A stretch of 64,000 bases of DNA from Spirochaetaceae bacterium (lineage in GTDB: Bacteria; Spirochaetota; Spirochaetia; DSM-2461): positions 128,001 through 192,000 of the forward strand of contig JAOPTT010000010.1 of the NCBI GenBank assembly GCA_051531975.1, read 5' to 3'. Within the stretch, counting starts at the first letter, position 1. The number at the start of each line of letters is the position of its first letter. The notes under the pieces were generated by a model, which made no database searches, was not told the origin of the DNA, and saw only the letters and a list, made by a program, of their open reading frames with translations. Shown here in pieces: positions 2,168-18,780 of the stretch. Both the position numbers and the translations under genes were made by a program.

Positions 2168-2247
2168 TATCAACCTCCCCACCAATTAAATTATCGGTAT
2201 ATTTCTAGGGGATATCAATATAAAACAGGTAATATTGGCTTATTTGC

Positions 2248-3414
2248 TCAAATATTTACTTTTTTACTATAAATAAAATTGAGAATTGCAAGGATCATGA
2301 AAAATAAACCTATTGATAAATATATTATTGAATTCCCGTCATCTCTAGCTAAAAGTGCAAATAATGGGCCTGTAATAACAAAAGAGACCCTCATGAACAT
2401 ACTCTGAACCGATAAAACAGTGGCTCTATTTTGGCTATTTACCTCTTGGTGTATAAGGTTCCTCTCCAAAGGACCTTTTAGCCCCCGAATAATATAAAAA
2501 CTTAAAAAACCTATTATTATCCAGAACCCAGGTAAAAATATCAGACTAAAATATGAAAGGCTTAATACAAATGGTATAAATCGTAATATTTTAAGTGGTT
2601 CTTTTTTAGAAAATATTTTATGACTTAGATTTGAACAGATACCAACAACAACATTTAGTCCAGCCCATATTCCTCCAAAAAGTACAAGGGGGAACTCTCT
2701 TGACGCAAGTTCAGGTTGTATATACCAAAGTGCTAAAAATGTACCTAAACCGGAAAAAGCACCGTATGTAACTAGGTATAAAGTTTTACTATTACTAAAA
2801 GTTGACTTTATATCTTTAATAAAGTGGCTAAATGTTAGTGATGATGTCCCCTCTCTTTTTATTTTTGGTTCAATTAAGAAAAATGCTAATATAAATGCAA
2901 TTGCTTCTAATGTTCCCTCTATATAAAAATTCATCTTCATGGAATAAACGGCTATAATACCACCAATTATACTTGCTATACCTTCGGAATAACTAGCTAT
3001 GGACATATAAAGTCCTTCGGTTTTATAGTGATTTTTTTCATCTTTTAGCTCTAATAATGTATCATATAACAGAGATGAATCTGTTCCTGATAAAAAACTA
3101 GAACCTATTCCTAACAGAACCTCTGCTAAAATAAAATTCCAAAAACCAGGAGCTAAACCAAATAGATACATACCAATTGTAGAGAATAATAGGCCTACAA
3201 TAATTGTAATTTTTCTACCAATTTTATCACTAAAATATCCTGAAGGTATCTCAAATAGAAACATACTTAAGGAAAATGAAGCTTGAACAACCATAACTTG
3301 AAATAGTGATAATCCATTCTCTTGGAAAAACAGTACTATCGTTGGCATTATCATCAAAAACCATCTAAAAATCTGCATGGCAAAAAGCAGAGGTATATTT
3401 CGTGCTATTTTCAT
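2248..3414 (-). CDS. MFS transporter
   Basis: About 12 hydrophobic segments; EIPSGYFSDKIGRK (MFS motif A); RATVLS in the second half. Confidence 0.9.
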   Translation of the reverse strand: MKIARNIPLLFAMQIFRWFLMIMPTIVLFFQENGLSLFQVMVVQASFSLSMFLFEIPSGYFSDKIGRKITIIVGLLFSTIGMYLFGLAPGFWNFILAEVLLGIGSSFLSGTDSSLLYDTLLELKDEKNHYKTEGLYMSIASYSEGIASIIGGIIAVYSMKMNFYIEGTLEAIAFILAFFLIEPKIKREGTSSLTFSHFIKDIKSTFSNSKTLYLVTYGAFSGLGTFLALWYIQPELASREFPLVLFGGIWAGLNVVVGICSNLSHKIFSKKEPLKILRFIPFVLSLSYFSLIFLPGFWIIIGFLSFYIIRGLKGPLERNLIHQEVNSQNRATVLSVQSMFMRVSFVITGPLFALLARDDGNSIIYLSIGLFFMILAILNFIYSKKVNI

Positions 3415-4559
3415 GATGATATAACTTTATTCATTAACTTTTGAAACTTTCTAATAATTGGAAAGCAACCATATGGTAGTAGTTGAAGCATAAGTACAGC
3501 AGTTAGTCTGTTTTTAGGGTCTATACACAACCATGTAGTTGCCATTCCATCCCAACCCCACTCTCCTATTGGACTACCTGTTTCAGATCTTTCTAGATCT
3601 ATTAAGGTTCTAACACCTAATCCGTATCCATATCCGGCTTTCATATCGGTTTGAAATCTTTCTAAGATGTCTCCTGCAATGTGATTTTTTGACATAAACT
3701 CAACTGTAGATGAATCTAAGATTTTAATATTATTAATAGTTCCTTTGTTTAATAACAGTTCACAAAATATTGACATATCTTTTATTGTAGAATAATAGCC
3801 ACCACCAGGCATTTCAAAAAGTTCTGGAGCCATATCTACTTTGTTTAAACTTTTATCTTTCCATTCATATATTGATGAAACTCTACTCTCTTTTCCTTTA
3901 GGATCTAAAAATGTATCAACCATATTTAGAGGTTCTAAGATTCGTTCCTGTATAAATTCTGAATATTTCTGTTCACTTATAACTTCTATCAATCTACCAA
4001 TAACATCGATTGAAAAGCTATATAAATAGTCACTTCCTGGTTCAAAAGATAGGGGTAAATCTGCTATTAGATCAACAAAACTACCTAGGCTAACTTCATC
4101 CCCTGATTTCTCTTTAATTTTAAACTGTTCTCGATATAATTTATCAATTTCATTATCGTGAAAGCCATAACTTATTCCTGATGTCATAGTAAAAAGTTGA
4201 GCTATTGTAATATCAGTATCTGAATCCTTAGTTTTAAGTTCACCATCTTTATAACTAGTTATTACTTTTGGATTTTCAAAGGATGGTATATATTTTTTAA
4301 TTTTATCTTCAAGTGAAAACCGTCCCTCTTGGTATAAAATTAATGCAGCTGTTACAGTTATAACTTTAGACATTGAATAAATCCTAAAGATTGTATCATC
4401 TTTTATTGGAGCTTTTGACTCTAGATCTGAATAGCCAAAATTCTCTTGGTATAATGTTTCACCATCCTGTTTAATAATAGCGCTTATTCCAGCAATCTTT
4501 TTTTGATCAATGTACTTTTGGCACATTTTATTAATATCTATAAATTTTGTTTTATTCAC
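3411..4559 (-). CDS. Serine hydrolase, beta-lactamase/esterase family (cytoplasmic)
   Basis: SMSK (SxxK), FEPGSDYLYS, PLNMVDT, GWDG; no signal peptide. Confidence 0.85.
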   Translation of the reverse strand: MNKTKFIDINKMCQKYIDQKKIAGISAIIKQDGETLYQENFGYSDLESKAPIKDDTIFRIYSMSKVITVTAALILYQEGRFSLEDKIKKYIPSFENPKVITSYKDGELKTKDSDTDITIAQLFTMTSGISYGFHDNEIDKLYREQFKIKEKSGDEVSLGSFVDLIADLPLSFEPGSDYLYSFSIDVIGRLIEVISEQKYSEFIQERILEPLNMVDTFLDPKGKESRVSSIYEWKDKSLNKVDMAPELFEMPGGGYYSTIKDMSIFCELLLNKGTINNIKILDSSTVEFMSKNHIAGDILERFQTDMKAGYGYGLGVRTLIDLERSETGSPIGEWGWDGMATTWLCIDPKNRLTAVLMLQLLPYGCFPIIRKFQKLMNKVISS

Positions 4560-4562
4560 TTT

Positions 4563-5687
4563 TTATCCTATAGCTTCTACGGTTTCTTTTAACTGTTTTA
4601 TTATCTTTATCTTTTGTGGGCATTTTGGTTCACACTCCCCACATTCTGTACATTCTGAAGCATTTTTACCTTTTAGCCAATCAACTTTTCCAATTTCTTT
4701 ATATTGGGATTTTGCATGTTCAGTTAATCCATATATTTTATGATGATTCATTAAACTAAAATTAAGAGGAATATTTACACCACTTGGGCAGGGCATACAG
4801 TAGTTACAACCGGTACAATAAAGATCAGCAAGCCTTTTATTCTCTTCTAAAGATTCTGATATTGCCTTTAGTTCAGTCTGTGATAGTTTATCAGTTCGAC
4901 TTGTTGTTTTTGTATTTTCATTAACCATGTCTATATTGCCCATACCGGAAAGTGCACAATCTACATTAGGATTTGATAATACAAATCGCATTGCTAATTC
5001 AGGGTTTGAAACAGTTTTATTAGGTAATAAGTCCTGAATAACCTTAGATGGAAAACCTAATCTTCCTCCACCTACAGGCCCCATAACAATAACACCCATG
5101 CCTTTTTCTTTTGCCCTAATCATACCAGCTTCGTTACTTCTATCTAGTAGATTATATTGGCATAACAGTGTTTCAAAATTACCAGTATCTATAATTTTAA
5201 GCATATTTTCTGCATCATCATGAAAACTAAAAGACAGATGTCTAATTATACCCTCTTCTTTAGCTTTTAATGCCATTTCTAGTGGTCCACCTGGAACATC
5301 TATAGACTCTGTATAAGATTTCCAGCTAATACCCCACATATGATAAAAATCTATATAATCCGTATCGAGCTTTGTTAGAGAGCTCTCTAATCGTTTCAAG
5401 AAGTCAGAACCTGATGCATTTTCTATAGGATTTTTTGTTGAAAGATATACCTTATCCCTCCGGCCCTTTAGTGCCATCCCAACTATAACTTCACTCTCTT
5501 TTTCACAATAATATGGTGCAGTATCTACATAGTTCCCACCAAGGTCTAAATAATCATTAATTAATTTAGCTCCTGCTTCATGATCAAACTGATCTTTACC
5601 ATTAACTTTAAGAGTTGGTAACCTCATAGCACCAAATCCTAATGTAGAAATATTTATTCCTGTATTTCCTAGTGGTCTATATAACAT
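4563..5687 (-). CDS. Aldo/keto reductase with C-terminal 4Fe-4S dicluster domain
   Basis: LGFGAMRLP, DTAPYY, YLSTK; C-terminal CTGCNYCMPCP and CTECGECEPKCP; SD GGAGG. Confidence 0.9.
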   Translation of the reverse strand: MLYRPLGNTGINISTLGFGAMRLPTLKVNGKDQFDHEAGAKLINDYLDLGGNYVDTAPYYCEKESEVIVGMALKGRRDKVYLSTKNPIENASGSDFLKRLESSLTKLDTDYIDFYHMWGISWKSYTESIDVPGGPLEMALKAKEEGIIRHLSFSFHDDAENMLKIIDTGNFETLLCQYNLLDRSNEAGMIRAKEKGMGVIVMGPVGGGRLGFPSKVIQDLLPNKTVSNPELAMRFVLSNPNVDCALSGMGNIDMVNENTKTTSRTDKLSQTELKAISESLEENKRLADLYCTGCNYCMPCPSGVNIPLNFSLMNHHKIYGLTEHAKSQYKEIGKVDWLKGKNASECTECGECEPKCPQKIKIIKQLKETVEAIG

Positions 5688-5696
5688 CTATGCCTC

Positions 5697-6287
5697 CTAT
5701 ATTTTGTTTAGAAATTCTACTTCAGAGAAATCTTTATATAAGTTAATTTTTGAAACTGAGCCTCTGTTTAATTTAAATGTCCAAAAATGTTTTAAGTCGA
5801 GAGCAAGCAGATCTAATAAGAGAATCGAAAGTGGTCCTTTGTGTGAAACGATTATAATATTGTAACTTTTATTATCTGCTACAAGTCTGTTTATATCTGG
5901 AAAACTACTTAAAACCCTGGTTTTTAAATCAATTAAAGTTTCACCATTTGGTGGTCTATTATTTATTGGGTCATTAATCCATTTTGTATATTTTTCTGAG
6001 GATTGATTATTTATATCTGAAAAAGAGAGACCTTCCCAATCTCCAAAATCGATCTCTTCTAGACCAATAACAGGAGTTGCTTTTAACCCTATCTGTTTTG
6101 ATAGAATATCAGATGTTAATACTGATCTTTTCATTGGGGAAGTATAAAAGTAGTCTACATTTTTTATATTATCTATTTTTTTTATCTGTTCTGTTCCAAA
6201 ATCGGTTAATAATACATCGGAACCACGGCCAATGTATGTTCCATTCCCTTCACATTCACCATGTCTTATTAAATATAAATTAACCAT
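5697..6287 (-). CDS. Histidine phosphatase family protein (CobC/GpmB-like)
   Basis: LIRHGE, SPMKRS, EIDFGDWEG, PNGET, VSHKG. Confidence 0.85.
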   Translation of the reverse strand: MVNLYLIRHGECEGNGTYIGRGSDVLLTDFGTEQIKKIDNIKNVDYFYTSPMKRSVLTSDILSKQIGLKATPVIGLEEIDFGDWEGLSFSDINNQSSEKYTKWINDPINNRPPNGETLIDLKTRVLSSFPDINRLVADNKSYNIIIVSHKGPLSILLLDLLALDLKHFWTFKLNRGSVSKINLYKDFSEVEFLNKI

Positions 6288-6395
6288 ATAATATTTTATC
6301 CTGTTTCCCTAAAATTGTTAAATAAAGACTAACTTCGTGGCTACATTGTATCAGGTTTTTCTTAATAGTCTTTAAAGAGTTTAAGAAATATAAAT

Positions 6396-8738
6396 TTATT
6401 CAGTTTTAAATTGTCTTATTTCTGTTTTTAAAGTTTTTGTAGTTCTATCAAGTATTTTATTATCTTCTATAACTTGATCTACAATCTCACTTATATTTTC
6501 AGATGACTGGGTTATATAACCAATAGCTGCAGAGACTTCATTTGATTTAAGGGTTGCTTGATTCATAGCTTTTTGCATTAGTTTTGATCTACCTTTCATG
6601 GAACTAGAGCTACTTTGTACTTCTTTAGCAATACGATTTAGTGTATTTAAAGCTTCTAAAATCTCCTTTCCACCATTAGCTAACTCATTTGTAGATTCTG
6701 TGATCTCTTCTAGACCACTTGAAACATCTGCTACCTCAGTATCTATTAAATTAAAACTATCTTTTACATTTCTACTATGATTAACACTTGCTTCAATTTT
6801 ATTAGAAACTTCATTTATTAAATCTGTGATTAAAGTTGTACTATTTGCTGAATTTTCTGCTAATTTTCTAATCTCGTCGGCAACAACAGCAAATCCTTTT
6901 CCATATTCCCCAGCATGAGCAGCCTCTATTGCAGCATTCATTGCTAATAAATTGGTTTCAGACGATATCTGAGTAATAATATCTGTAATACTTTTTATCT
7001 CTTCTACTTTACTAAATACAGCTTCTATTGATTCAGTGCTAAGATCTACATACTCGGCCCCATTCTTAGTATTTTGGGCTAGAGACATTACGGCTCTATT
7101 TTTATCTGCAGTAATACTAGAAACACTGTTTATTGACTCTACCATAATATCAATCGCCGAGGATGATTGTTCTATTGCAACACTCTCGTTTATGACTGTT
7201 CTATCTAGAATATTTATATTATTTATAATTTCGCTGATATCCAAATCTGCTCTTAGAATATTATCGTTTAGAGCTTCGATGTTTCCTGTTATATCTATAA
7301 TTTTACTGTTTATATCTGAGGCTTCCGAGGACATACTCTCTGTATGAACAATTAAATCTTCTTTTACATTTTCAGTTTCAATACTAGCGTTTCTAATATT
7401 AACAACTATTTTTATAAGTTTACCTACAAAATTATTAAACTGTTTTGATAAAAAACCAACCTCATCATTAGTCCTGGTACTTAGTCTTTTAGTAAGATCC
7501 CCTTCTCCTTTGGACATCTCTTCTAATAATTTACCTGCGTTATCTAATGGCTTAACTAAATTCCCAACATAGAGTGAAGTAATAATAATTAAAATTATAC
7601 TTAGAATAATAGCAATTATAAGAGTTAAACCATTTAGTAGAGCTAAATTCTCCTCAACCTTTAGTGTTCTTTCTTCAACAAGTTTTTCTATGTCGTCAAT
7701 ATAAAATCCAGTACCAATAATCCAGCCCCACTCTTTAATTCCTTCAACAAAGGATAACTTATGAACCTCAGGGCCACCTGGAGTTTTGGGCCATAGATAC
7801 TCTACATATCCCTTTTGATCTTTATTAACAACTTGAACCATTGTTTTAAATATATTTTCATCTGTTCCTATAGTTTTGTTATATTTGGCATCGTCGAGCT
7901 TCTTTCCATCAAGAGTTGGAGATACAGGGTGCATTACCATATTTGGAATAGGAGTTTGCATATCGTTTACCCAAAAATATCCTACCCCATCGCTATACTT
8001 CATTGATTTTATTATATCTAAAGCTTCCTGTTTTGCTTCTTTAATTGCATCATCAATATAGATACCAGAACCTATAACCCAATCAAACTCAGGAATCAAT
8101 TTAACATATGAAAGTTTAGGTACACCTTCTTCTAAACCTGTAGGTGTAGGTTTTGACCAAACATAGTCTACAAATCCTTCCCCATCTTTTAAAGCAACTT
8201 CAACAAAAGCTTGAAATAAATTCTGGTTTTTACCTAGTGCTACCTCATATTTTTTATTATCTAAAACCTGGTTATTTAGTGTTGGGGATATTGGATGCAT
8301 TACCATTTTAGGATATGGAAGTCCAGTATCGTTAATCCATATATAACCACTATTATTATCAAATCGAATAGTTTCAATATCAGCTGCGGCTTGCCTTTTA
8401 GCCTGGTCTAAACTAAGTCTGCCACTTTTATACAGATCTACCTTTGTTCTAATAATAGATTCTGATGCATCAATTATATTTTTTAGTTCTTTCCCATATT
8501 TTTCAATAAGTTTATTATTATCTGTTGAGGCAAATATTTTCTCATGAATTGTTTGAGTTGCTATATCTGTGTAGTTTTTAAGGGCAGACTCAGCTTTTTT
8601 ATATTCAGCCTCTCGAATCTCAGCTATATCTATACGATTAACTCTGTCTAGATCTATATTAACGACTAAAAGAACTGACCCACCCATAGCTACAATTACT
8701 GAAATTACTAATAATTTAATTTTCAAACTTATCTTCAT
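6396..8738 (-). CDS. Methyl-accepting chemotaxis protein with two tandem single-Cache domains and HAMP
   Basis: Two TMs; two copies of GY(I/F)W(I/V)ND...MVMHP...W(V/I)IG(S/T)G(I/F)YIDD; HAMP (GDLTKRL...DEVG); MCP core [34 protein letters not shown]. Confidence 0.95.
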
Positions 8739-8813
8739 ACCTACATTATCGTACGGAAATACGTATTTGTTAATAAAATTCTATTTAAAACCATATTCAA
8801 TTTACTTATAAAC

Positions 8814-8861
8814 TTGACACTTTATTTATACCTGATACCATTAAAGGTGAGTCGTGACTCA
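8814..8861 (+). promoter_or_regulatory. Sigma70-type promoter plus palindromic operator (likely TetR site) for the aminotransferase operon
   Basis: TTGACA 8814-8819, 16 bp spacer, TGn-TACCAT 8836-8841; inverted repeat TGAGTC-GT-GACTCA at 8848-8861 over the expected +1. Confidence 0.65.
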
Positions 8862-8894
8862 TTATTAATAAAATTTTCAATTTAAGGTCGTAAT

Positions 8895-10361
8895 ATGAAC
8901 GGATTTTCAATTTCAGAGTACCATGATACAAAAGAGATATATAAAAAACTATATGAACTATTAGATCAGCCAATAAGAACAATAAAAAAAAGTGCATTAG
9001 ATGGTTATTTAAAAAATTATTTCGATAAAAAATGTACTAAATCAAAGGAAATGACTAATAAAGCCATGGAATATATTCCAGGTGGCGTTCAGCATAACTT
9101 AGCGTTTAACTACCCATTCCCCTTAGTATTTACTAAAGCTGACGGGGCTTATTTAGAGGATTTAGATGGAAATAGTTATATTGATTTTTTACAAGCTGGT
9201 GGGCCAACTGTTTTGGGAAGTAACGATAAAGAAATTAGAGGAAAACTAATAGAACTATTAAATACGACTGGTCCCTCCACAGGTCTATTCCACGAATATG
9301 AGTTAAAACTAGCCAAGATAATTACAGAATTTATACCCTCTGTTGATATGTTTAGAATGTTAGGCTCAGGTACTGAAGCGGATATGGCATCAATAAGAAT
9401 TGCTAGGCTTGCAACTAAAAATATGAACATAGTTAAAATGGGTGGAGCATACCATGGGTGGAGTGATCAACTAGCATACGGTATTCGTATTCCTGGTACT
9501 ATGCATTTAGAAGCACACGGTGTTCCAAGGCATATATTCAAACATACACAGGAGTTTTTTCCTAACGACTTAAAATCCCTAGAGAGAGTCTTAAAACGTA
9601 ATAAGTTTAGAGGTGGTACAGCAGCTGTATTAATTGAGCCTATTGGACCTGAAAGTGGGACAAGACCACTTGATAAAGATTTTAATGCTGGAGTTAGAAA
9701 GTTATGTGATAAATATGGAGCACTTTTAATATTTGATGAAGTTGTAACAGCATTTAGAATTGGTATGAGTGGTGCCCAGGGTTATTTTGGAGTTGAACCA
9801 GATTTAACAGTTTTTGGTAAGGTTATAGCTGGAGGATATCCGTCGGCTGGTGGTATTGGTGGCAAAAAAAAATATATGGACTACCTCGGAGCTGGTATTC
9901 AGGCTGGACATAAAAAAGCACTAGTTGGCGGAACAATGGCTGCTAACCCTCTCTCCTGTGCAGCTGGTTATTATACCCTTAAAAAAATGGCAGAAACTAA
10001 TGCCTGTGAGAAAGCTGGTAAGGCAGGGGACAGATTAACAAAAGGTCTGCAAACTTTAATAAAAAAATATGATCTACCATTTGTTGCGTTTAACCAAGGA
10101 TCTATATGTCATTTAGAAACAGTTGGTACAATGTTATTACATGTAGATCTAAAAGAGTTTTGGAAGATAAAATCTACAATTAAAGAAGCAAAAACTAGAA
10201 AAGTAGCAATGGAAGAGATGGGTGCTGCTTGTATGGCCGAAGGTATTGTTACCCTTGCAGGTAGTAGATTATATACATCAGCTGCCCAAACTGATGGTAT
10301 AATAGACGAGGCCTTAATTAGGTTTGAAAGAGTTTTTAAAAATATGCAGGGGGTAGAATAG
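8895..10361 (+). CDS. Class III PLP-dependent aminotransferase (GSA-aminomutase-like fold, substrate unknown)
   Basis: IPGGV, DLDGNSYIDF, SGTEA, YHGW, LLIFDEVVTAFR, PLP lysine in FGKVIAGG, GTMAANP. Confidence 0.9.
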   Translation: MNGFSISEYHDTKEIYKKLYELLDQPIRTIKKSALDGYLKNYFDKKCTKSKEMTNKAMEYIPGGVQHNLAFNYPFPLVFTKADGAYLEDLDGNSYIDFLQAGGPTVLGSNDKEIRGKLIELLNTTGPSTGLFHEYELKLAKIITEFIPSVDMFRMLGSGTEADMASIRIARLATKNMNIVKMGGAYHGWSDQLAYGIRIPGTMHLEAHGVPRHIFKHTQEFFPNDLKSLERVLKRNKFRGGTAAVLIEPIGPESGTRPLDKDFNAGVRKLCDKYGALLIFDEVVTAFRIGMSGAQGYFGVEPDLTVFGKVIAGGYPSAGGIGGKKKYMDYLGAGIQAGHKKALVGGTMAANPLSCAAGYYTLKKMAETNACEKAGKAGDRLTKGLQTLIKKYDLPFVAFNQGSICHLETVGTMLLHVDLKEFWKIKSTIKEAKTRKVAMEEMGAACMAEGIVTLAGSRLYTSAAQTDGIIDEALIRFERVFKNMQGVE

Positions 10362-11443
10362 TGGTTATAGATAACTTACCAATGCGAGAAGAGTTATGCC
10401 AAACTGGGGTTGCACTATCAAACCAGGGTTTAGTTGCAAGAACTTGGGGTAACTTAAGCATTAGAATTACAAGTGATAAATTTATTATCAGTCCATCAGG
10501 TATATTTTACCAAGACACAGAACCAAAACATCTATCATTAGTTAATATAAGTGATGGAAAGTGGGTTGGGGATTTTAAACCTAGTTCAGAAAAAAGTTTA
10601 CATGCATGTATTTATGCACAGGATAACAATATTTCAGCAATAATTCATACTCACCAGATAGCAGCTAGTGCCGTCGCTGCTGCAAGAGTGACAATTGGTA
10701 ACAATATAACACTTGCAAAATATGCACTACCAACAACAGGGACTTTAGCTAAATATGGTTCAAAGGCATTTTCTCTATCTAAACCGTTTATAAAAGGTTC
10801 ATCGGCTAGAGCAGTACTTTTAGCAAATCATGGAACAATAATAGCAGCAAACAGTATGAAAGAAGCTTTTGACGCTGCAATAGAATTAGAAAAAATTGCT
10901 ACTGAGTTTGTTAAATCTAAGTTTGTATCTACAGGTAGTCTACTTTCTAAAGCATATAAAAGTGCCCAGGTAGCTAATTTTGAAAGTAAACTCTATAAAC
11001 GATTAGATACTAATAGACCTAAATTAATAGATGAATTATTTAATACTAGGGAGGATCTGAATTTCATTCTTCACTCTAAGGAACCAAATACTTACGCACT
11101 ATCCGAGACTGGATTAACATTAAAACCACTTTTGGATGACTTAGCACAACTAATTGGAACAAAAGTTGGGTCTGTAAATGTCTCTTTAGATTCCCATCTT
11201 CCTAAAAATGAACCTGGAAGTAGAAATGCCTTTTTTTTAAAGGGCAATGGAGCACTTTGTTTTGCGGAGACAAAACTTGATGTATACGCAGTACAATTAG
11301 TTCTAGAAAAGGGCTCTAGGAGTTTAATAGACTCTGAAATATTAGGTGGTGGGCATAGAATCTCATTATTAGAGTCCTTTTTAATGAGATTTATTTACAA
11401 AAAGAAATATAGTAAAATGAGTTTGAATACAAAAGAGGAGTAA
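10361..11443 (+). CDS. Class II aldolase/adducin family protein with a second, degenerate aldolase-like domain
   Basis: TWGNLS, PSSE, HTH and NHG metal ligands in the N-half; C-half has DDLAQLIG and FFLKGNGALCF but no His ligands. Confidence 0.85.
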   Translation: MVIDNLPMREELCQTGVALSNQGLVARTWGNLSIRITSDKFIISPSGIFYQDTEPKHLSLVNISDGKWVGDFKPSSEKSLHACIYAQDNNISAIIHTHQIAASAVAAARVTIGNNITLAKYALPTTGTLAKYGSKAFSLSKPFIKGSSARAVLLANHGTIIAANSMKEAFDAAIELEKIATEFVKSKFVSTGSLLSKAYKSAQVANFESKLYKRLDTNRPKLIDELFNTREDLNFILHSKEPNTYALSETGLTLKPLLDDLAQLIGTKVGSVNVSLDSHLPKNEPGSRNAFFLKGNGALCFAETKLDVYAVQLVLEKGSRSLIDSEILGGGHRISLLESFLMRFIYKKKYSKMSLNTKEE

Positions 11444-11446
11444 TTT

Positions 11447-12103
11447 ATGGGAAAGTATCATAACGACATTTTTGACAGAATACCTCAGGATAAAAAAAAG
11501 CTTATTTACAAAGTAGCTACTAGTGAATTTTCAGCTGCTGGATACTCAGGTGCAAATATAAATACTATTGCAGATAAAATAGGCATTAGCGTAGGAAGTT
11601 TATATAAATATTTTAGCACCAAAGAAAACCTATTTTTATCTACTGTAGAACTTGGTAGGGAATCTTTAAAACAGGCATTTAACTACCTTTCGACCCTTGA
11701 AGGTGGTCTATTTTTTAAAATTGACGAAGTTATACAAATTATACAGGAACACTCTAAAGAACACCCTGATATGATTATTTTATATAATGAATTAACAACT
11801 GTTGGTTATGCCGATCTTACAAAAAAATTATCAAATCAGATGGAAACAATATCAGCTGATTATTATTCTGGGCTTATAGAAGATGCACAAAACAGTGGAG
11901 AAATACTTAATAAATCCGATGCCAAATCCCTAGCACTTTTTATTGATAACCTTCTTCTAAATCTACAATTTAGCTATTCTAATGAATATTATAAAGAGAG
12001 AATGAGTATATATTTAGGGGAAAAAACAGTAAATGATAAGCAGATAAGAGAAGATTTATTAACTTTTATAAAAAATGCTCTGATTGAAGGTGATAATGGA
12101 TAA
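11447..12103 (+). CDS. TetR/AcrR family transcriptional regulator
   Basis: N-terminal HTH GYSGANINTIADKIGISVGSLYKYFSTKENLF; SD GAGGAG. Confidence 0.93.
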   Translation: MGKYHNDIFDRIPQDKKKLIYKVATSEFSAAGYSGANINTIADKIGISVGSLYKYFSTKENLFLSTVELGRESLKQAFNYLSTLEGGLFFKIDEVIQIIQEHSKEHPDMIILYNELTTVGYADLTKKLSNQMETISADYYSGLIEDAQNSGEILNKSDAKSLALFIDNLLLNLQFSYSNEYYKERMSIYLGEKTVNDKQIREDLLTFIKNALIEGDNG

Positions 12104-13691
12104 ATATATTCTTAGCTACGATGTTGGTACCACGAGTACTAAAACATGTATCTATAGCTTTAATGGAACACTAAAACTAGAAAGCAGTGCTGGTGCAGAA
12201 TATAGTTTATATATATCAAAAGGTGGTATTGCAGAACAGAACCCAAAAGACTGGGTTGATGCCCTGGCAATGACTACTAAAAAAATACTGTATGAACTTG
12301 ATATTAAACCAACTCAAATAGCTGGAATTAGCTTCTGTTCCCAAATGCAAGGCCTGATTTTAATAGATAAAAATGGGGAGCCAATTAGACCAGCAATGAG
12401 TTATATGGATAACAGAGGTACTAAACAAAAAGATCAGTTTATGAAAGCTGGTCCAAGGGTTATGGACTTAAGAGTAGATGCTGCAATATCTGGGTTAATA
12501 GTTAATGGTGGTGTACCAGCTAGTAGTAAAGATCCTATTTGGAAGTACCTGTGGGTAAAAGAGAACCACCCTAAACAGTTTAAAAAAATAAAATACTGGT
12601 TAGATGTAAAAGAGTACTTAATATATGTTTTAACTGGAAATGCTATTATGACAGAGGATACAGCTTTTGCAACATTTTTATACGATACAAGAAAAAACAG
12701 AGGTTCTTGGAATAAAGGGCTAATAAAAAAATATAAAGTTGAAGCGTCCCATCTGCCTATAGTGATACAAGCTAGTGATATAGCAGGATATACAACAGAA
12801 AGTGCTGCTAATGTCCTAGGTCTTATTCCTGGGATACCTGTATTTGGTAGCGGAGGTGATGCAACGTTAATTCCTCTAGGTTCAGGTACAACAAAACCTG
12901 GGGATACCCACATTTACACAGGCACCTCAGGTTGGGTATCTACAATTGTAGATAAAAGAAAAATCGATATTGATTCAATGATAGCCTCTGTACCAGCTGC
13001 AAACAGTGGTTTTTATAACTTTTTTGCAGAGCAGGAGACTGCAGGTAAATGCCTAGAATGGGTTAAAGACCATCTGGCTTTAGACGAGATAAATGTTTAT
13101 CTATCTAAAAAAACTGTTATAGAAGAGCCTTCTGCCCTGCATAAATCACTTTATAGCTATTTAGTAGATGTTATTTCTAAACAAGCAATCGGTTCTGGTG
13201 GTGTAATATTCACTCCATGGTTACACGGCAACAGATCGCCATTCGAAGACCCAAACTCTAGGGGGATGTTTTTTAATTTATCATTAGAAACTGGTAAGGC
13301 ATCTATGATTCGAGCAGTTTTAGAAGGGATTATTTTTAACCAATTTTGGCTTTTAGAGTCTATAGAAAAAAGTATAACTACCAATAAAAAGTTACGTTTT
13401 GTTGGTGGTGCTGCCCAAAACAAATACATAAGCCAGATGATAGCAGATATTTTTAATAGGACAATAGAAGTTCCAGAGGGCCCACAATATGTAGGGGCTA
13501 ATGGTGCTGCAATAGTTGCTGCCGTTGGTTTAAACTGGATAACAAGCTTTGACAATGTATCAAAATCTATAAAAATTGCTCATGTTTCAAAACCAAATTA
13601 TAATAATCATCTAGAATACAGGAAGAATTATTTAGTTTTTAAGAAATTATATAAGGCCAATAAAAAACTTTTTAATGAATTAAATAATTAA
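12096..13691 (+). CDS. FGGY-family carbohydrate kinase (xylulokinase-like)
   Basis: DVGTTSTK, EQNPKDW, GGD, GTSGW, PWLHGNRSP, RAVLEG, VGG. Start placed at ATG 12096 behind GAAGGTGA. Confidence 0.9.
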   Translation: MDKYILSYDVGTTSTKTCIYSFNGTLKLESSAGAEYSLYISKGGIAEQNPKDWVDALAMTTKKILYELDIKPTQIAGISFCSQMQGLILIDKNGEPIRPAMSYMDNRGTKQKDQFMKAGPRVMDLRVDAAISGLIVNGGVPASSKDPIWKYLWVKENHPKQFKKIKYWLDVKEYLIYVLTGNAIMTEDTAFATFLYDTRKNRGSWNKGLIKKYKVEASHLPIVIQASDIAGYTTESAANVLGLIPGIPVFGSGGDATLIPLGSGTTKPGDTHIYTGTSGWVSTIVDKRKIDIDSMIASVPAANSGFYNFFAEQETAGKCLEWVKDHLALDEINVYLSKKTVIEEPSALHKSLYSYLVDVISKQAIGSGGVIFTPWLHGNRSPFEDPNSRGMFFNLSLETGKASMIRAVLEGIIFNQFWLLESIEKSITTNKKLRFVGGAAQNKYISQMIADIFNRTIEVPEGPQYVGANGAAIVAAVGLNWITSFDNVSKSIKIAHVSKPNYNNHLEYRKNYLVFKKLYKANKKLFNELNN

Positions 13692-13700
13692 TTTTATTAA

Positions 13701-13738
13701 CTGCACACTATCTGCACAAAAGACCACTAAAATATAAC
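13701..13738 (+). promoter_or_regulatory. Direct-repeat OmpR/PhoB-family binding site and -10 element
   Basis: CTGCACA at 13701-13707 and 13712-13718 (11-bp period) in the -35 position; TATAAC at 13733-13738; GGAG SD follows. Confidence 0.6.
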
Positions 13739-13752
13739 TAGGAGTTTATTAT

Positions 13753-15591
13753 ATGATATTTGAAATTTTAGTAGATGGTATGACTTGTGGTGGCTGTGAA
13801 CTGCATGTAGAAAAAGCGGTTTCAGAAATTGATGGTGTAAAAAAGGTTAAGGCCAATAATGCAACTTCAAAAGTTATAATAAACACAGATGACTGGGTGA
13901 CAATAGAAAATAGTCAAGATTTTTTAGATACAGTTAGTAATAAAATTAAAGACTCAGGATATGAGTATAAAGGTAAATATATTAAAAGAAGTAATAACTT
14001 TTCATTGAAACAGTGGGTTGGAATAATCATAATTTTTGCAGCTTTATATTTGGTTGTAAAAGAGACTGGTATTTTAAATAGACTGCCAGTAATAAAAAGT
14101 ACAATGAGTTATGGGTTTATATTTATTATTGGACTCTTAACTTCTGTCCACTGTATAGGAATGTGTGGTGGTATTAACTTATCGGTAAGTATTACAGGTC
14201 TAACTAAGAAGCATAAATTTAATAATGCAATCCTCTATAATTTAGGTAGAGTAATTTCCTACACTATTATTGGTGGAATTGTTGGTGCTATCGGCTCAGT
14301 ATTATCAATTACAGGTAGCATGCAGGGTATTATTGTTGGAATTGCAGGAATATTCATGATTTTAATGGCTATTAAAATGTTTGGGCTATTTCCTATAATT
14401 GATAAAATCATACCAAAACTACCAAAGGTTTTAACAAATAAAATAATTGGTTCAGGTACTGGTAGAGGTCCATTTATTATTGGATTTCTAAATGGTTTTA
14501 TGCCGTGTGGTCCATTACAATCAATCCAAATATACGCTCTAAGCACGGGAAGTGCCTTTTCTGGTGCTCTTTCAATGTTTCTATTTAGTTTAGGAACAGT
14601 TCCTTTAATGTTAGGTTTTGGTTCTATAGCTTCTGTTCTTCCTAAAAAGTTCCATAGTAAGATTCTTAAAATAAGTGCTCTTTTAGTTCTGTTATTAGGA
14701 GCAGGTATGGTTATTAGAGGAATGAATTTAAATGGTGTATCTCTACCAGGATCAAATAGTTCAAACCTTAAATCTGAAAATGTACGAATTGCTAAAATAT
14801 CAGGGGATAAACAGTATGTAACTACGATTATGCACTCTGGTGAATACGAACCATTTATAGTACAAGCTGGTATTCCTGTTGTCTGGACAATAGTTGCAGA
14901 TGAAGATCAACTTAATGGATGTAATAACCCATTAACTGTACCTAAATACGATATAAGATTTCAGATGGAACCAGGGGAAAATATTATAGAGTTCACTCCA
15001 CCAGCAGATGCCACAACTATTACATATACATGTTGGATGGGTATGATAACAAGTGGAATATCAGTTGTAGAGGACTTAAACTCTATAGATTCGTCACAAA
15101 TAGAAGAAGCTGCTGCTCTTTCTGCTGAATCCAGTGGTGGTTGTGGTGGTGGTTGTTGCAGTACTGGTGGCGACACTGGCGACAGTACAGGGAACATTTT
15201 AGAATATACCCTACCCTCAATTAATACAGAAAACATTGGACTAGCTTCTATCCAGGATGAAATTCAGATAGCCACGGTTAATATTACTGGGGATGGTTTT
15301 GAACCTGGAGTTATTGTTCTGCAGAAAGATATTCCGACTACATGGCTAATAAATGGTACACAGTTAGATGAAAAAAACTACCGTTTACTGTTTCCAGCAT
15401 ATAATAATAGGGGTATAGAACTAACAGAAGGTGAAAATGTTATAGAGATAATGCCTCAATTGGATTTCCAATACTATTCATGGAGACAAGACTTTGGTGG
15501 TTATGTTAAAGTTGTAGACGATCTAACGAATATAAACCTAGATGAAATTAAGAAGGATGTAGAAATCTTTAATGATAAATTTAAAAGATAA
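13753..15591 (+). CDS. Heavy-metal-associated (HMA) + DsbD_2/UreH-like TM domain + cupredoxin-like domains
   Basis: GMTCGGC (HMA), HCIGMCGG and MPCG in the TM region, NGCNN...YTCWMGM (cupredoxin-like), Cys-rich linker GGCGGGCC. Confidence 0.85.
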   Translation: MIFEILVDGMTCGGCELHVEKAVSEIDGVKKVKANNATSKVIINTDDWVTIENSQDFLDTVSNKIKDSGYEYKGKYIKRSNNFSLKQWVGIIIIFAALYLVVKETGILNRLPVIKSTMSYGFIFIIGLLTSVHCIGMCGGINLSVSITGLTKKHKFNNAILYNLGRVISYTIIGGIVGAIGSVLSITGSMQGIIVGIAGIFMILMAIKMFGLFPIIDKIIPKLPKVLTNKIIGSGTGRGPFIIGFLNGFMPCGPLQSIQIYALSTGSAFSGALSMFLFSLGTVPLMLGFGSIASVLPKKFHSKILKISALLVLLLGAGMVIRGMNLNGVSLPGSNSSNLKSENVRIAKISGDKQYVTTIMHSGEYEPFIVQAGIPVVWTIVADEDQLNGCNNPLTVPKYDIRFQMEPGENIIEFTPPADATTITYTCWMGMITSGISVVEDLNSIDSSQIEEAAALSAESSGGCGGGCCSTGGDTGDSTGNILEYTLPSINTENIGLASIQDEIQIATVNITGDGFEPGVIVLQKDIPTTWLINGTQLDEKNYRLLFPAYNNRGIELTEGENVIEIMPQLDFQYYSWRQDFGGYVKVVDDLTNINLDEIKKDVEIFNDKFKR

Positions 15592-15593
15592 AA

Positions 15594-16277
15594 ATGGCTA
15601 ATATTTTAATAATTGAAGATGAAGTTAAAATTGCAAATGCAATCTCCGCGTATCTAAAAAATAGTGGACATACAGCTTTTATTGAACTTAACGGTAAAAG
15701 TGGATTATCGACATTTTCTAATAGAACCTTCGATCTTATTGTTCTTGATTTAATGTTACCTGATCTAAAAGGTGAAGAGATTTGCTCCTATATTAGGAGC
15801 AGATCCAGGGTTCCAATAATAATGTTAACTGCTAAATCAGATGAAATATCACAAATCCATGGTTTTAGAATTGGTGCTGACGATTTTATTACCAAACCAT
15901 TTAGCCCAAGAGTTTTAATGGTTCGGATCGAAGCACTACTTCGCCGGCATAACCAATCACCATTAGCTCAATTAATTGAGTTTGATTCTGGACGTATAAA
16001 AATAGATACAAAAAATAGTAGCTTAACCAAAGATAAGAGTTCAATTAATTTAACTCCTATAGAATTTAGCATATTAAAAAAACTAATATCTTCTCCAAAT
16101 AGAGTATTTTCAAGAGAAGAGATAATCCATGGTGTTATGGGTCCCGGTTTTGATGGAACAGACAGAACAATAGATTCTCATATAAGAAATTTGCGATATA
16201 AAATTGAAGATGATCCCAAAAATCCATCCTATATTTCTACTAGTAGAGGCAGGGGGTTTTATTTTAATGAAAAATAA
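15594..16277 (+). CDS. OmpR/PhoB-family response regulator
   Basis: IEDE, LDLMLP, MLTAK, DDFITKPF, wHTH DRTIDSHIRNLRYKIE...RGRGF. Confidence 0.95.
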   Translation: MANILIIEDEVKIANAISAYLKNSGHTAFIELNGKSGLSTFSNRTFDLIVLDLMLPDLKGEEICSYIRSRSRVPIIMLTAKSDEISQIHGFRIGADDFITKPFSPRVLMVRIEALLRRHNQSPLAQLIEFDSGRIKIDTKNSSLTKDKSSINLTPIEFSILKKLISSPNRVFSREEIIHGVMGPGFDGTDRTIDSHIRNLRYKIEDDPKNPSYISTSRGRGFYFNEK

Positions 16278-17625
16278 AAAGAGTATCTCGATTGCTCTTA
16301 GAATAACATTCTACTCTGCAACTTCAATTACAATCGCAGTTTTAATTATGGGTCTACTATTTACAATATTTTTGAACAGTCAGTTTAAAGATTATTTACA
16401 TTTAGAAAATAGTAAGATCAGAGATGAAATAGTATATAACTACTCTGTTTACGCAAAAAATAGTACAAAATTGGATCAACATTGGTTAGAACAGTTTAGT
16501 AATTTATATATGAAACAAGGCATGTTTATTAGTTTAACCGATAACTCTGGTGAAACACTTTGGAGTTGTCTGGATAATAATAGTAGTAGTTGTAACATGG
16601 ACATGGTGGAGATGAACTTAGAATCATTAGACTCTTTACAGTCCTCAACCTACAAGGTTCCAACTGGGGACATTAAGATTTCCTACATATCCCCAGAGGA
16701 CTACTCTGTAAACGATAAATCTTTTATATTTGAAACATATAAAATGTTACTACTTTCCATGGTTATATCACTTATAATCTCAGCCATTTCTTCTCTGTTA
16801 TTATCAAGATCTATGAGTAACCCACTTATAACGTTATCAGATTATGCTACAAGGTTAGCAAGTAGAGATTATAAAGCTTCAGATTCTTTTAAAAAAGGGA
16901 CAGTTGAAATTGATAATCTACACAGTGCAATAGAATATTTATCAAAATCTTTGAAAACAGGTGAAGTACTAAGAAAAAGATTAACCTCGGATATATCCCA
17001 CGATTTACGTACACCTCTTACTTCGATACAAAGTTACTTAGAAGCGATGATTGATGGTATATGGCCAGCAACTAAAGAGAGACTACAAGACTGTCACGAT
17101 GAAATAATACGGTTAGCAGGTTTAGTTAATAACCTTGAAGATTTAAACAGTTATGATGATAAAATTGATAAATTAAATTTATCAAAAGTTAAGATAAAAG
17201 ATTCAATTAAAACAGCACTAAAAATGTTTGAAAAGGAATTTCAGGCTTCAAATATACAACTGGATGTAACAGGAGAAGATGTAACAATATTAGTAGATGA
17301 GGATCGGCTAAAGCGAGTCTGGATAAATCTAATATCTAATTCTATAAAATTCATGAAAAATGAGGGCTTTATTAAAGTTAATATAGAAAGTAATACTAAA
17401 GTTGAAGTTACATTTTCTGATAACGGTATAGGTATAGACAAAATGGATATACCCTATATATTTGAACGTTTTTATAAAGTCGATGAATCCAGAAATATAG
17501 AAGGCTCAGGCTTAGGTCTATCAATTGTTAAAGAGATTATAGAACTTCATAAAGGTGATATAAGAGTAGAAAGTAATAAAAATAGTTTAACAACATTTAT
17601 TATTAGTTTGCCTTTAGGAGAATAA
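16267..17625 (+). CDS. Membrane sensor histidine kinase (HAMP-HisKA-HATPase, BaeS-like)
   Basis: Two TMs, SHDLRTPL, NLISNSIKF, DNGIG, IFERFYK, GSGLGL. Start moved to ATG 16267, overlapping the regulator's 3' end. Confidence 0.93.
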   Translation: MKNKKSISIALRITFYSATSITIAVLIMGLLFTIFLNSQFKDYLHLENSKIRDEIVYNYSVYAKNSTKLDQHWLEQFSNLYMKQGMFISLTDNSGETLWSCLDNNSSSCNMDMVEMNLESLDSLQSSTYKVPTGDIKISYISPEDYSVNDKSFIFETYKMLLLSMVISLIISAISSLLLSRSMSNPLITLSDYATRLASRDYKASDSFKKGTVEIDNLHSAIEYLSKSLKTGEVLRKRLTSDISHDLRTPLTSIQSYLEAMIDGIWPATKERLQDCHDEIIRLAGLVNNLEDLNSYDDKIDKLNLSKVKIKDSIKTALKMFEKEFQASNIQLDVTGEDVTILVDEDRLKRVWINLISNSIKFMKNEGFIKVNIESNTKVEVTFSDNGIGIDKMDIPYIFERFYKVDESRNIEGSGLGLSIVKEIIELHKGDIRVESNKNSLTTFIISLPLGE

Positions 17626-17628
17626 GAT

Positions 17629-18780
17629 ATGATAAAAAAAGTAGTAAATCGACTTAAATCTAAGTGGTTAGGTTTATTAATATTGTTAATCCTGTTTTTA
17701 TTTATAAATTACAATAATAAAACAACCATTTTTAAGGTTAAAACAGATGATGAGATCATATTAACACAATCTTTTATTAAACAACATTTTCCCAAAATGA
17801 AGAGTTCCACTAATTCTAAAAAATTGAAGGGATGGAATATTATCAAGGATTCAAAAGGTAGAACTTTAGGTTATTATATTGTATCTGAAAATAATAGATG
17901 GAAGGTTACAGGTTATAATGGGAATGTTCCTATTTTTATAAAATTAGATGAAAACCAAAAAATTTCAGGAGTAGAACTACTAGATAACATAGAGACTCCC
18001 AGATTTTTATATAGACTATATTCTTTAAACTTTTTTAAATCTTGGAATGGTTTAACCCTATCGGAAGTAGCAGATTCTAATATTGATACGATAGCTGGTG
18101 TAACACTTACAAGTCAAACAGTAATATCAAATTTATTTGAAGTAATATTAAACACAGAGGCAATAAACGCAAAAAGAAAAGTTGACTATAAAAAAATAGT
18201 TATTATTACATGCCAATACCTTCTTTTACTTTTTGCATTATGTAGTTTTATAATTAAAGATCTAAAAAAATACAGGATCTGGTTCCTTGTATCTAATATA
18301 TTAATATTTGGATTCATTGCAGGTAATTTTATTTCTATGGCTATGTTAAAAGGATTTTTAACCGGGGCAGTACATTTTACTGCTAACCCAGTTTTATGGA
18401 TTACGGTTTTATTATCAGTAATATTACCATTAATTTCTAACAAATCTTTTTACTGCAATTATATTTGCCCATTTGGTGCAGCCCAGGAAATAGTTGGTAA
18501 AGTTAAAATAAAATTAAAAATATCAAAACAGATACATAAAACACTAAACTCTTTTAGACCAATATTGTTTGGAATTTTAACCCTATTAATTTTAATAAAT
18601 TACTCTATAGATCTTTCATTAATAGAACCTTTTGCCGCCTTTTTATACTCTGTTGCAGCACCAATAACAGTTATATTAGCAGTTGTATCACTGATAATAT
18701 CAGTTTTTATTGATAAGCCATGGTGTAAATGGTTTTGCCCAACTGGTCAAATGCTTGAGTATTTACGATCACAAAGTTAA
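17629..18780 (+). CDS. Membrane protein with periplasmic FMN-binding domain and two CxxxCP motifs (NosR/RnfG-like)
   Basis: GYNG, ETP, DTIAGVT (flavinylation-like motif), CNYICPFG and CKWFCPTG. Confidence 0.8.
   Translation: MIKKVVNRLKSKWLGLLILLILFLFINYNNKTTIFKVKTDDEIILTQSFIKQHFPKMKSSTNSKKLKGWNIIKDSKGRTLGYYIVSENNRWKVTGYNGNVPIFIKLDENQKISGVELLDNIETPRFLYRLYSLNFFKSWNGLTLSEVADSNIDTIAGVTLTSQTVISNLFEVILNTEAINAKRKVDYKKIVIITCQYLLLLFALCSFIIKDLKKYRIWFLVSNILIFGFIAGNFISMAMLKGFLTGAVHFTANPVLWITVLLSVILPLISNKSFYCNYICPFGAAQEIVGKVKIKLKISKQIHKTLNSFRPILFGILTLLILINYSIDLSLIEPFAAFLYSVAAPITVILAVVSLIISVFIDKPWCKWFCPTGQMLEYLRSQS

Follow-up and report, generated by a model that had tools for sequence, protein, structure and literature searches.

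What substrate would bring together an aminotransferase, an aldolase, a TetR-family regulator and a sugar-type kinase in one operon? Such a gene set occupies positions 8895 to 13691 of a 64,000-nucleotide stretch from a Spirochaetaceae bacterium (assembly GCA_051531975.1, contig JAOPTT010000010.1, positions 128,001 to 192,000, forward strand); this whole stretch is called the window below. The initial annotation described four tightly coupled genes behind one promoter and operator and recognised no characterised pathway for the combination. The reading frames, the junctions, a sigma-70-like site and a palindrome were all found again, and a literature search, with subscription journals outside its coverage, found no paper that assigns a function to the combination. 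From the observed gene structure, families, catalytic motifs, co-occurrence and operator-like palindrome, we consider it probable that the genes form a module under TetR repression that breaks down or detoxifies an amino-alcohol with a 2-amino-1,3,4-triol type head group. The module is a common one, present in many bacteria; more tentatively, we regard sphingolipid backbones as its leading candidate substrate. The features are as follows.

8814..8841, plus strand: promoter-like site, TTGACA, 16-nt spacer and TACCAT with a TG extension (10 of 12 consensus positions)
8848..8861, no strand: candidate TetR operator, the 14-bp palindrome TGAGTCGTGACTCA (TGAGT-N4-ACTCA), from a palindrome scan
8895..10361, plus strand: aminotransferase (AT), class III, HemL-like, 488 residues, from Pfam, NCBIfam and PDB profile matches, alignment and tree
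10361..11443, plus strand: aldolase (ALD), two-domain class II, 360 residues, from Pfam and NCBIfam matches, alignments and a structure model
11447..12103, plus strand: TetR-family regulator, 218 residues, from Pfam TetR_N
12084..13691, plus strand: FGGY-family kinase, 535 residues from TTG 12084 or 531 from the likely ATG 12096

The Pfam matches were 177.8 bits for Aminotran_3, 134.6 for Aldolase_II (residues 10-181 of 360), 45.4 for TetR_N, and 150.6 for FGGY_N and 102.8 for FGGY_C, so that both FGGY domains are present in the kinase. The stop codon of AT and the start codon of ALD share one base (TAGTG), and the ATG of the TetR gene, with the ribosome-binding site GAGGAG, lies 3 nt past the ALD stop. 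For the kinase, the in-frame ATG at 12096 is probably the start codon in preference to TTG 12084, since GAAGGTGA stands before it and the frame read from it shares 8 nt with the end of the TetR gene (ATGGATAA). Judged from these junctions, all four genes are translationally coupled. The G+C content is about 31% in the window and 31.5% in the genome, which is 98.5% complete.

Conservation of the gene set

If the four genes serve one pathway, as the initial annotation proposed, they should be found together in other genomes, and this is the case. An aldolase-pattern scan with one genome per species gave at least 593 confirmed ALD relatives among the 600 matches listed. The best 80 ALD-seeded loci were taken further; many are clipped by contig ends, so the counts from them are lower bounds (labels beginning with L denote loci and those with G genomes, G000 being that of the window). 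By tblastn, AT lies beside ALD in 58 of the 80 loci, 56 of them with 60-77% identity and two (L036 and L088) with only a 43% paralogue. The kinase is beside ALD in 28 loci, at 43-51% identity in 23 and at 27-30% in five from Bacteroidales. The TetR gene was found there in 12 loci by tblastn and in 17 by family clustering, and all four genes stand together in 11 (tblastn). According to the record titles, the seeded loci come from Bacillota, Spirochaetota, Bacteroidota, Endozoicomonas and one Nanopelagicales, and AT occurs also in Bacillota, Bacteroidota, Pseudomonadota and one actinobacterium.

The kinase follows AT even where the two genes are separated. When a locus held only AT and ALD, a kinase orthologue (48-51% identity) was present elsewhere in five of five genomes, and TetR adjoined the unlinked kinase in all three regions scanned out of four retrieved; one of the three (L103) also has an MFS_2 transporter adjacent. 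Among 301 genomes of the window's class, sampled without seeding, AT was found in 29 and the kinase orthologue (E <= 1e-100) in 26; the latter occurred in 26 of the 29 AT carriers vs none of the 272 other genomes. The three AT carriers that lack it include one genome that is 81% complete. In a sample of 301 genomes of the phylum, 56 carried AT (E <= 1e-100). The distribution of AT is patchy: it is present in 8 of 20 genomes of the window's family and absent from the one other genome of its genus.

Predicted pathway

Every reaction, the substrate and the repression in the following scheme are predictions. AT would move the C2 amine of the substrate to a keto-acid acceptor, leaving a ketose-like 2-ketone. 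The FGGY kinase would phosphorylate the neighbouring primary hydroxyl to a 1-phosphate, before or after the AT step, and the zinc aldolase domain would cleave this ketose-1-phosphate analogue to dihydroxyacetone phosphate (DHAP) and an aldehyde. AT would take the place that the isomerase has in fucose and rhamnose catabolism. TetR would occupy the palindrome, across the presumed start of transcription, until binding of the substrate or an intermediate releases it. We put the steps from amine to 2-ketone, 1-phosphate and DHAP into one scheme because an AT in the place of an isomerase is accompanied by a kinase and by a DHAP-type aldolase whose metal and phosphate site is intact. The initial annotation had put forward the same chemistry, from amine to ketose, ketose phosphate and DHAP with an aldehyde, and this agrees with all the observations made here. 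Since retro-aldol cleavage needs a hydroxyl at C4, the minimal substrate would be a 2-amino-1,3,4-triol.

When the 858 reading frames of the 80 loci were clustered, isomerases, dehydrogenases and hydrolases showed no broad recurrence; besides the four core families there were only lineage-restricted neighbours. One of them, found in 8 Fimenecus-type loci of a single lineage, is an iron alcohol dehydrogenase whose gene lies immediately upstream of AT in the same orientation; the protein is divergent (179 bits vs a cut-off of 523) and hints at an aldehyde product. The others are a calcineurin-like phosphoesterase in seven loci, a GPH-type MFS_2 transporter in five and a second AT in four.

AT might also act last. 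A ketose made by an isomerase encoded elsewhere would then be phosphorylated and cleaved, and the resulting aldehyde would be aminated, from lactaldehyde to aminopropanol or from glycolaldehyde to ethanolamine. The natural substrate of HemL is an amino-aldehyde, the closest solved relatives of ALD yield lactaldehyde or acetaldehyde, and an FLVCR-like transporter (described below) could export or import a small amino-alcohol. However, no isomerase family recurs in the 80 loci, the alcohol dehydrogenase of the same operon in 8 loci would compete for the aldehyde, and a glutamate-dehydrogenase-like gene that closes one operon (L110, below) suits removal of nitrogen, not its fixation. We therefore think this order unlikely and prefer transamination of an amino-alcohol ahead of aldol cleavage.

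An active and a degenerate aldolase domain in one protein

ALD has numerous relatives of 355-420 residues; a search for longer fused relatives (631-2000 residues) found none, which is weak evidence. In the N-terminal domain (about residues 1-190), N31, S46-G47, S75, E77, H96, H98 and H157 are invariant among 19 sequences and S76 is nearly so. We take these residues to be the three metal histidines, the catalytic glutamate and the Asn, Ser and Gly of the phosphate site. The motifs GN(L)S, SPSG, KPSSE, HTH and NHG align with those of the solved fuculose-1-phosphate and 5-deoxyribulose-1-phosphate aldolases. In the AlphaFold model (pTM 0.89) the mean pLDDT was 92.3, and its match to the FucA and DrdA structures gave target TM-scores of 0.78-0.82.

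The C-terminal domain (about residues 205-360) has invariant residues of its own in the 19 sequences, P256, D259, D260, Q263 and G266 among others, and no histidine triad. It occurs as a separate reading frame in Endozoicomonas (L048) and in L113, where it matches PF00596 (E = 7.6e-18 and 9e-18), and positions 239-358 of the ALD profile match the aldolase-fold decarboxylase NovR. By these two kinds of match, the C-terminal domain is a degenerate copy of the aldolase fold.

How the two domains divide the work is suggested by an alignment that took in tandem, split and single-domain forms. A 236-residue Bacteroidales enzyme carries all of the motifs in a single domain: ARTWGN, KPSSEK, HTHQ, PPILDDMAQIIG, NHG and the tail LGG...LM..IY..KYS. 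In the window protein the motifs are shared out: those for metal and phosphate remain in the N-terminal domain, which no longer has the LDD loop or the tail, whereas loop and tail remain in the C-terminal domain, from which the catalytic residues are gone. The loop, which carries LDD or FDE, aligns with a segment of FucA that presumably holds Tyr113, a residue lent to the active site by the neighbouring subunit. By analogy, the C-terminal domain probably supplies the loop that the neighbouring subunit gives in FucA. With its active and its degenerate copy fused, the protein clearly illustrates how an aldolase can be duplicated and its motifs then be divided between the copies.

It might be argued that the protein is an epimerase, dehydratase or decarboxylase that acts on a phosphorylated amino sugar or sugar acid in a different pathway. 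Among the NCBIfam models, all of them below cut-off, it matched the ribulose-5-phosphate 4-epimerase subfamily (98.8 bits), 3-oxo-tetronate 4-phosphate decarboxylase (87.3) and the MtnB dehydratase (58.5), and it has LDD or FDE where the presumed Tyr113 segment of FucA aligns. The top equivalog match was to NF005302 (100.2 bits vs a cut-off of 264) and all others were lower, so that ALD reaches no cut-off for FucA, AraD or another equivalog. The top matches in both sequence and fold are nevertheless fuculose-1-phosphate and 5-deoxyribulose-1-phosphate aldolases, and the protein has retained the glutamate as well as the three histidines. Another chemistry for this protein thus seems as unlikely as, or slightly more so than, a terminal aminotransferase, and aldol cleavage remains our preferred role for it.

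Kinase, regulator and operator

The kinase is nearest to XylB (291.7 bits vs a cut-off of 380.25) and GntK, and it is also below the cut-offs of GlpK, LsrK, FucK, RhaB and AraB. Its solved relatives are gluconate, xylulose and glycerol kinases, and a look-up in the ESM Atlas returned only generic FGGY clusters. The TetR protein matched no curated equivalog in the NCBIfam scan. The initial annotation called TetR control unusual for a sugar pathway, a remark that we find fair; such control fits an amino-alcohol or lipid-like substrate better than a sugar.

The palindrome at 8848-8861 has perfect arms; it begins 7 nt past the -10 hexamer, and AT starts 34 nt beyond the end of the palindrome. Taken as a whole, the promoter scan showed no enrichment (22 sites vs a shuffle mean of 23.4); the site at 8814-8841 is a consensus match only, and the case for it rests on position and conservation. 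Likewise, there are 2 exact copies of TGAGT-N4-ACTCA in the 5.46-Mb genome vs 5.4 expected from composition; its meaning as an operator thus comes from position and from recurrence in other genomes and not from rarity. The other genomic copy lies at position 242844 of contig C7 (TGAGTAAACACTCA).

The pattern recurs upstream of the AT start in L023, L024, L035, L041 and L048. The shorter form GAGT-N4-ACTC, mostly within TGAGT-N4-ACTCA, is found there once each in L023, L035 and L041 and twice in L048; L024 has one copy upstream of AT and another between the genes for the kinase and TetR. The intergenic DNA around the core genes of the 17 TetR-bearing loci amounts to 5087 nt and contains 6 exact copies of GAGT-N4-ACTC vs 0.08 expected. 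Over all 1.06 Mb of the loci there is no enrichment (13 found vs 16 expected), so that only the position upstream of AT is telling. The motif was found neither in the Acutalibacteraceae/Fimenecus AT-ALD loci nor in the TetR-kinase loci of those genomes. Since the half-site is common to Spirochaetota, Pseudomonadota and some Bacillota, the comparison supports a predicted orthologous pair of repressor and operator.

These control and kinase genes also bear on the direction of the pathway. The aldolase could join DHAP to an aldehyde and AT could then aminate C2, with an amino-polyol or a sphingoid-like lipid as the product. Class II aldolases are generally known to be reversible, and the calcineurin-like phosphoesterase gene follows ALD in seven loci. 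Production of phytosphingosine by Flavonifractor plautii has been reported, in passages that do not name the genes (PMC11914097). Catabolism is the better fit, however, for a kinase, a repressor of the substrate type and transporters of the importer type, and no acyl-reductase or N-acyltransferase gene recurs in the clustering of the 80 loci. A biosynthetic direction is therefore improbable, and we retain a catabolic or detoxifying role for the module.

The aminotransferase is distinct from HemL

AT has the fold of the class III pyridoxal phosphate (PLP) aminotransferases (PF00202, 177.8 bits vs a cut-off of 30.5). K309 and D281, which we take to be the Schiff-base lysine and the pyridine-binding aspartate, are invariant columns of the AT alignment. 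HemL is the closest sequence family and has the same fold type: the HemL models gave the best NCBIfam matches, both below cut-off (NF000818, 287.5 bits vs 398; TIGR00713, 269.2 bits vs 527.3), and structures of glutamate-1-semialdehyde aminomutase (GSAM) gave the best PDB matches (228.3 bits).

There is no tetrapyrrole context at AT, and the true hemL of the genome lies on another contig (C12:22132-23370) with 588.7 bits on TIGR00713. At the GGVNSPVRAF stretch of HemL, whose Ser and Arg presumably bind the carboxylate of the substrate, the genome's own HemL reads IPGGVNSPVRAF, whereas the window AT, four module ATs and a 43% paralogue (AT2) read IPGG(V/I)QHNL-A(F/N) and lack SPVR. If that role of Ser and Arg holds, the substrate of AT would be without such a carboxylate. 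The module ATs also have an N-terminal extension of about 50 residues that is absent from HemL. In a FastTree analysis of 64 sequences, 58 module ATs formed a clade of their own (support 99), with the genome's HemL, a HemL-like paralogue and four AT2 sequences outside it. The nearest relative of the window AT has 77% identity and comes from a Spirochaetia bacterium.

The initial annotation's warning against a hemL label was justified: such a label, here and in many homologues, would be wrong, the top matches being to HemL models and all below cut-off. That AT is the cell's GSAM and the cluster a chance neighbourhood would fit those top NCBIfam and PDB matches, but it is effectively refuted by the sub-cut-off scores, the true hemL on C12, the separate clade without SPVR and the tight co-occurrence of AT with ALD and the kinase.

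Sphingoid bases as candidate substrate

Phytosphingosine is an abundant natural compound of the 2-amino-1,3,4-triol kind, and for that reason it leads as a substrate. It is conceivable, though we propose it only tentatively, that the module is the missing bacterial route of sphingoid-base degradation or detoxification, in which the head group of phytosphingosine (4-hydroxysphinganine) would be handled as a sugar. Transamination at C2, phosphorylation at C1 and aldol cleavage between C3 and C4 would give DHAP and a long-chain fatty aldehyde. The copy in the window, switched by TetR, would use free bases released by other organisms.

The occurrence of neutral ceramidase (PF04734) gives this proposal a possible link. 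In the phylum sample, 63 of 301 genomes have a PF04734 match, 59 of them over the cut-off. By a hand count, a ceramidase match is present in 42 of the 56 AT carriers vs 21 of the 245 other genomes. Relatives are not independent in this count, and some thirty of the genomes with both genes seem to belong to a single lineage with genomes of roughly 4 Mb. Six genomes (G133, G238, G268, G288, G318 and G341) have the ceramidase gene in the same orientation as AT and at a distance of 5-8 kb. Four of these six loci were annotated (L109-L112); they have on one strand, in this order, genes for a neutral ceramidase, a 7TM-GAF-AraC membrane regulator, an FGGY kinase, a single-domain ALD, an AT and an MFS_1 transporter, and L110 adds a 998-residue glutamate-dehydrogenase-like gene at the operon end. 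The identities are 46% for FGGY, 28-30% for ALD and 58-60% for AT. These ATs are sister to all other module ATs in the tree, and their family scores mirror those in the window. A single gene order is common to all four loci, and they count as roughly one evolutionary event.

The MFS_1 proteins of the ceramidase loci and of L114 have the choline/ethanolamine transporters FLVCR1 and FLVCR2 as top solved relatives (103-118 bits; the next at <=32), a hint, as far as sequence relatives can tell, that an amino-alcohol is the transported species, long- or short-chain alike. Orthologues stand beside the module in four of the 80 loci (L018, L050, L065 and L072). The window's genome has one at C1:240942-242180 (48-51% identity; L115 8910-10193, minus strand), with no linkage to the operon; an alpha/beta hydrolase gene (Peptidase_S9/BD-FAE) precedes it, a xylose-isomerase-like TIM-barrel gene adjoins it, and a contig end is near. 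The MFS_2 proteins do not discriminate the substrate: their solved relatives are MelB (54.9 bits) vs the lysolipid carrier Mfsd2a (42.8), and a second copy had no match. TetR-type repressors often sense lipophilic ligands. This trait, the ceramidase link and the lack of a dedicated transporter in most loci may together speak for a sphingoid substrate, in our estimate with a little less than even weight.

A number of findings weigh against the readings given here. As to the sphingoid substrate, no PF04734 match was found in the window's genome (98.5% complete), in any of the 20 genomes of its family or within 8 kb in any of the 80 seeded loci. In the class sample a ceramidase is present in 6 of 301 genomes, all AT carriers of a single family, and 23 of the 29 AT carriers are without one. 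Relatives of the FLVCR-like transporter carry small solutes, and we know of no precedent for an FGGY kinase that acts on a lipid.

As to the pathway itself, AT, ALD and the kinase are under every curated equivalog cut-off, and for that reason family membership does not reveal their substrates. Epimerases, dehydratases and decarboxylases, too, belong to the class II aldolase fold. No transporter was found in or adjoining the window's operon. To our knowledge, 2-amino-alditols other than sphingoid bases are rare in nature, which narrows the candidates without identifying one. In loci with full flanks, such as L016, L022, L037, L055, L083, L085 and L089, an ALD homologue has no AT within 8 kb. 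The dehydrogenase link comes from one lineage: the 12-locus cluster mixes two kinds of gene, the rest being not adjacent to AT on the same strand, and the single one of these that was scanned (L068) encodes an ordinary lactaldehyde reductase and runs on the other strand. Finally, the terminator scan found no terminator-like site downstream of the kinase, so that transcription may read through into the gene at 13753 and the unit may be longer than four genes.

Neighbouring genes and other loci

In the window, the genes immediately after the kinase (13753-18780, plus strand) begin with one for a 612-residue protein in which a heavy-metal-associated domain is joined to a DsbD_2 membrane domain. 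Next come genes for an OmpR-type response regulator, a histidine kinase and a membrane protein of the FMN_bind/Fer4_5 (NosR/NapH-like) kind; together they are possibly a metal or redox sensing unit. Divergent from the operon (6396-8738, minus strand) is a 780-residue chemoreceptor with dCache_2/sCache_2, HAMP and MCP signalling domains, whose top NCBIfam match is CtpM of P. aeruginosa, far under the cut-off; it is not conserved next to the module in other genomes. Farther out on the minus strand are a 374-residue aldo/keto reductase fused to a 4Fe-4S dicluster domain (4563-5687) and, beside it, a CobC-like histidine phosphatase (5697-6287; 124 bits on the alpha-ribazole phosphatase model, below cut-off).

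Some loci in other genomes have a distinctive setting. A Bacteroidales module (L039) stands among glycoside hydrolases (GH5, fucosidase, GH30 and GH1), and related Bacteroidales loci have GH2, DUF2961 and an MFS_1 transporter. In the Fimenecus-type loci L103 and L102 (G044 and G045), the unlinked kinase comes after a group of melibiase-like (GH36/GH31), GH4 and PfkB kinase genes that share its orientation; in L103 it is preceded by TetR and followed by the MFS_2 transporter, and L102 has a MatE gene in the TetR position. One Clostridiales contig (L043, 6507-9227 and 14743-17205) carries two AT-ALD pairs about 8 kb apart with identical AT proteins. Endozoicomonas (L048) has the four-gene module with the aldolase as two reading frames; in its flanks (1225-3551 and 9331-12216) an MFS_2 transporter and a GH1 glycosidase are each interrupted by a transposase gene. 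In L114 (G350, 6232-15306), from a lineage of about 40% G+C, AT, TetR, an FLVCR-like MFS_1 and the kinase are followed by genes for an APH-family phosphotransferase, a GlpD-like FAD oxidase and a metallo-beta-lactamase-fold protein, and no aldolase match was found.

Comparison with known systems

Sphingoid bases are host antimicrobials and abundant dietary lipids. If the proposed route is true, it would bear on carbon and nitrogen turnover in the gut, the rumen and the sea and on bacterial tolerance of host lipids. The question of bacterial sphingosine metabolism raised by a 2025 paper (PMC11893366) would become directly testable with three soluble enzymes and a repressor with a defined candidate operator.

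The nearest models for the pathway are sugar pathways. Catabolism of L-fucose (FucI-FucK-FucA) and L-rhamnose (RhaA-RhaB-RhaD) and salvage of 5-deoxyribose (DrdK-DrdI-DrdA) are isomerase/kinase/aldolase pathways. In these, as proposed here, the ketose-1-phosphate formed by an FGGY-type or related kinase is split by a zinc class II aldolase into DHAP and an aldehyde; the best solved relatives of ALD are the 5-deoxyribulose-1-phosphate aldolase of B. thuringiensis (6btd, 83.9 bits) and FucA. The module differs in having AT in the place of an isomerase, a fused active and degenerate aldolase and a TetR-type regulator, and its enzymes are below the cut-offs of FucA, AraD, FucK, RhaB and XylB.

FumI (PDB 6hbs), the aminopentol aminotransferase of fumonisin degradation, is a class III aminotransferase like the window AT and, as we understand it, removes the amine of a sphingoid-like 2-amino-polyol. 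It is distant from AT (94.6 bits vs 228.3 for GSAM), and we know of no kinase or aldolase partner of FumI. The "fin" riboflavin neighbourhood of C. scindens (10.64898/2026.02.13.705874) was considered and rejected as a counterpart, the passages of that report describing a class I aldolase and mentioning no aminotransferase.

In P. aeruginosa, SphR, sphA, sphBCD and CerN are reported to provide sensing and removal of sphingoid bases in connection with a secreted neutral ceramidase (PMC5150637, PMC3900636, PMC11893366), a system that the module would resemble if its substrate is a sphingoid base. In 2025, sphBC was described there as metabolising sphingosine to a product called unknown (PMC11893366). 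Its proteins have nothing in common with those of the module: that system has an AraC regulator, a periplasmic oxidase and a cytochrome c and no AT, kinase or aldolase.

The eukaryotic route consists of sphingosine kinase and sphingosine-1-phosphate lyase, which phosphorylate C1 and cut the chain to give a fatty aldehyde. The same two outcomes are proposed for the module. In eukaryotes, however, a PLP lyase cuts between C2 and C3 and the amine stays on phosphoethanolamine, whereas the module would remove the amine first and then use a zinc aldolase to break the bond between C3 and C4, with release of DHAP.

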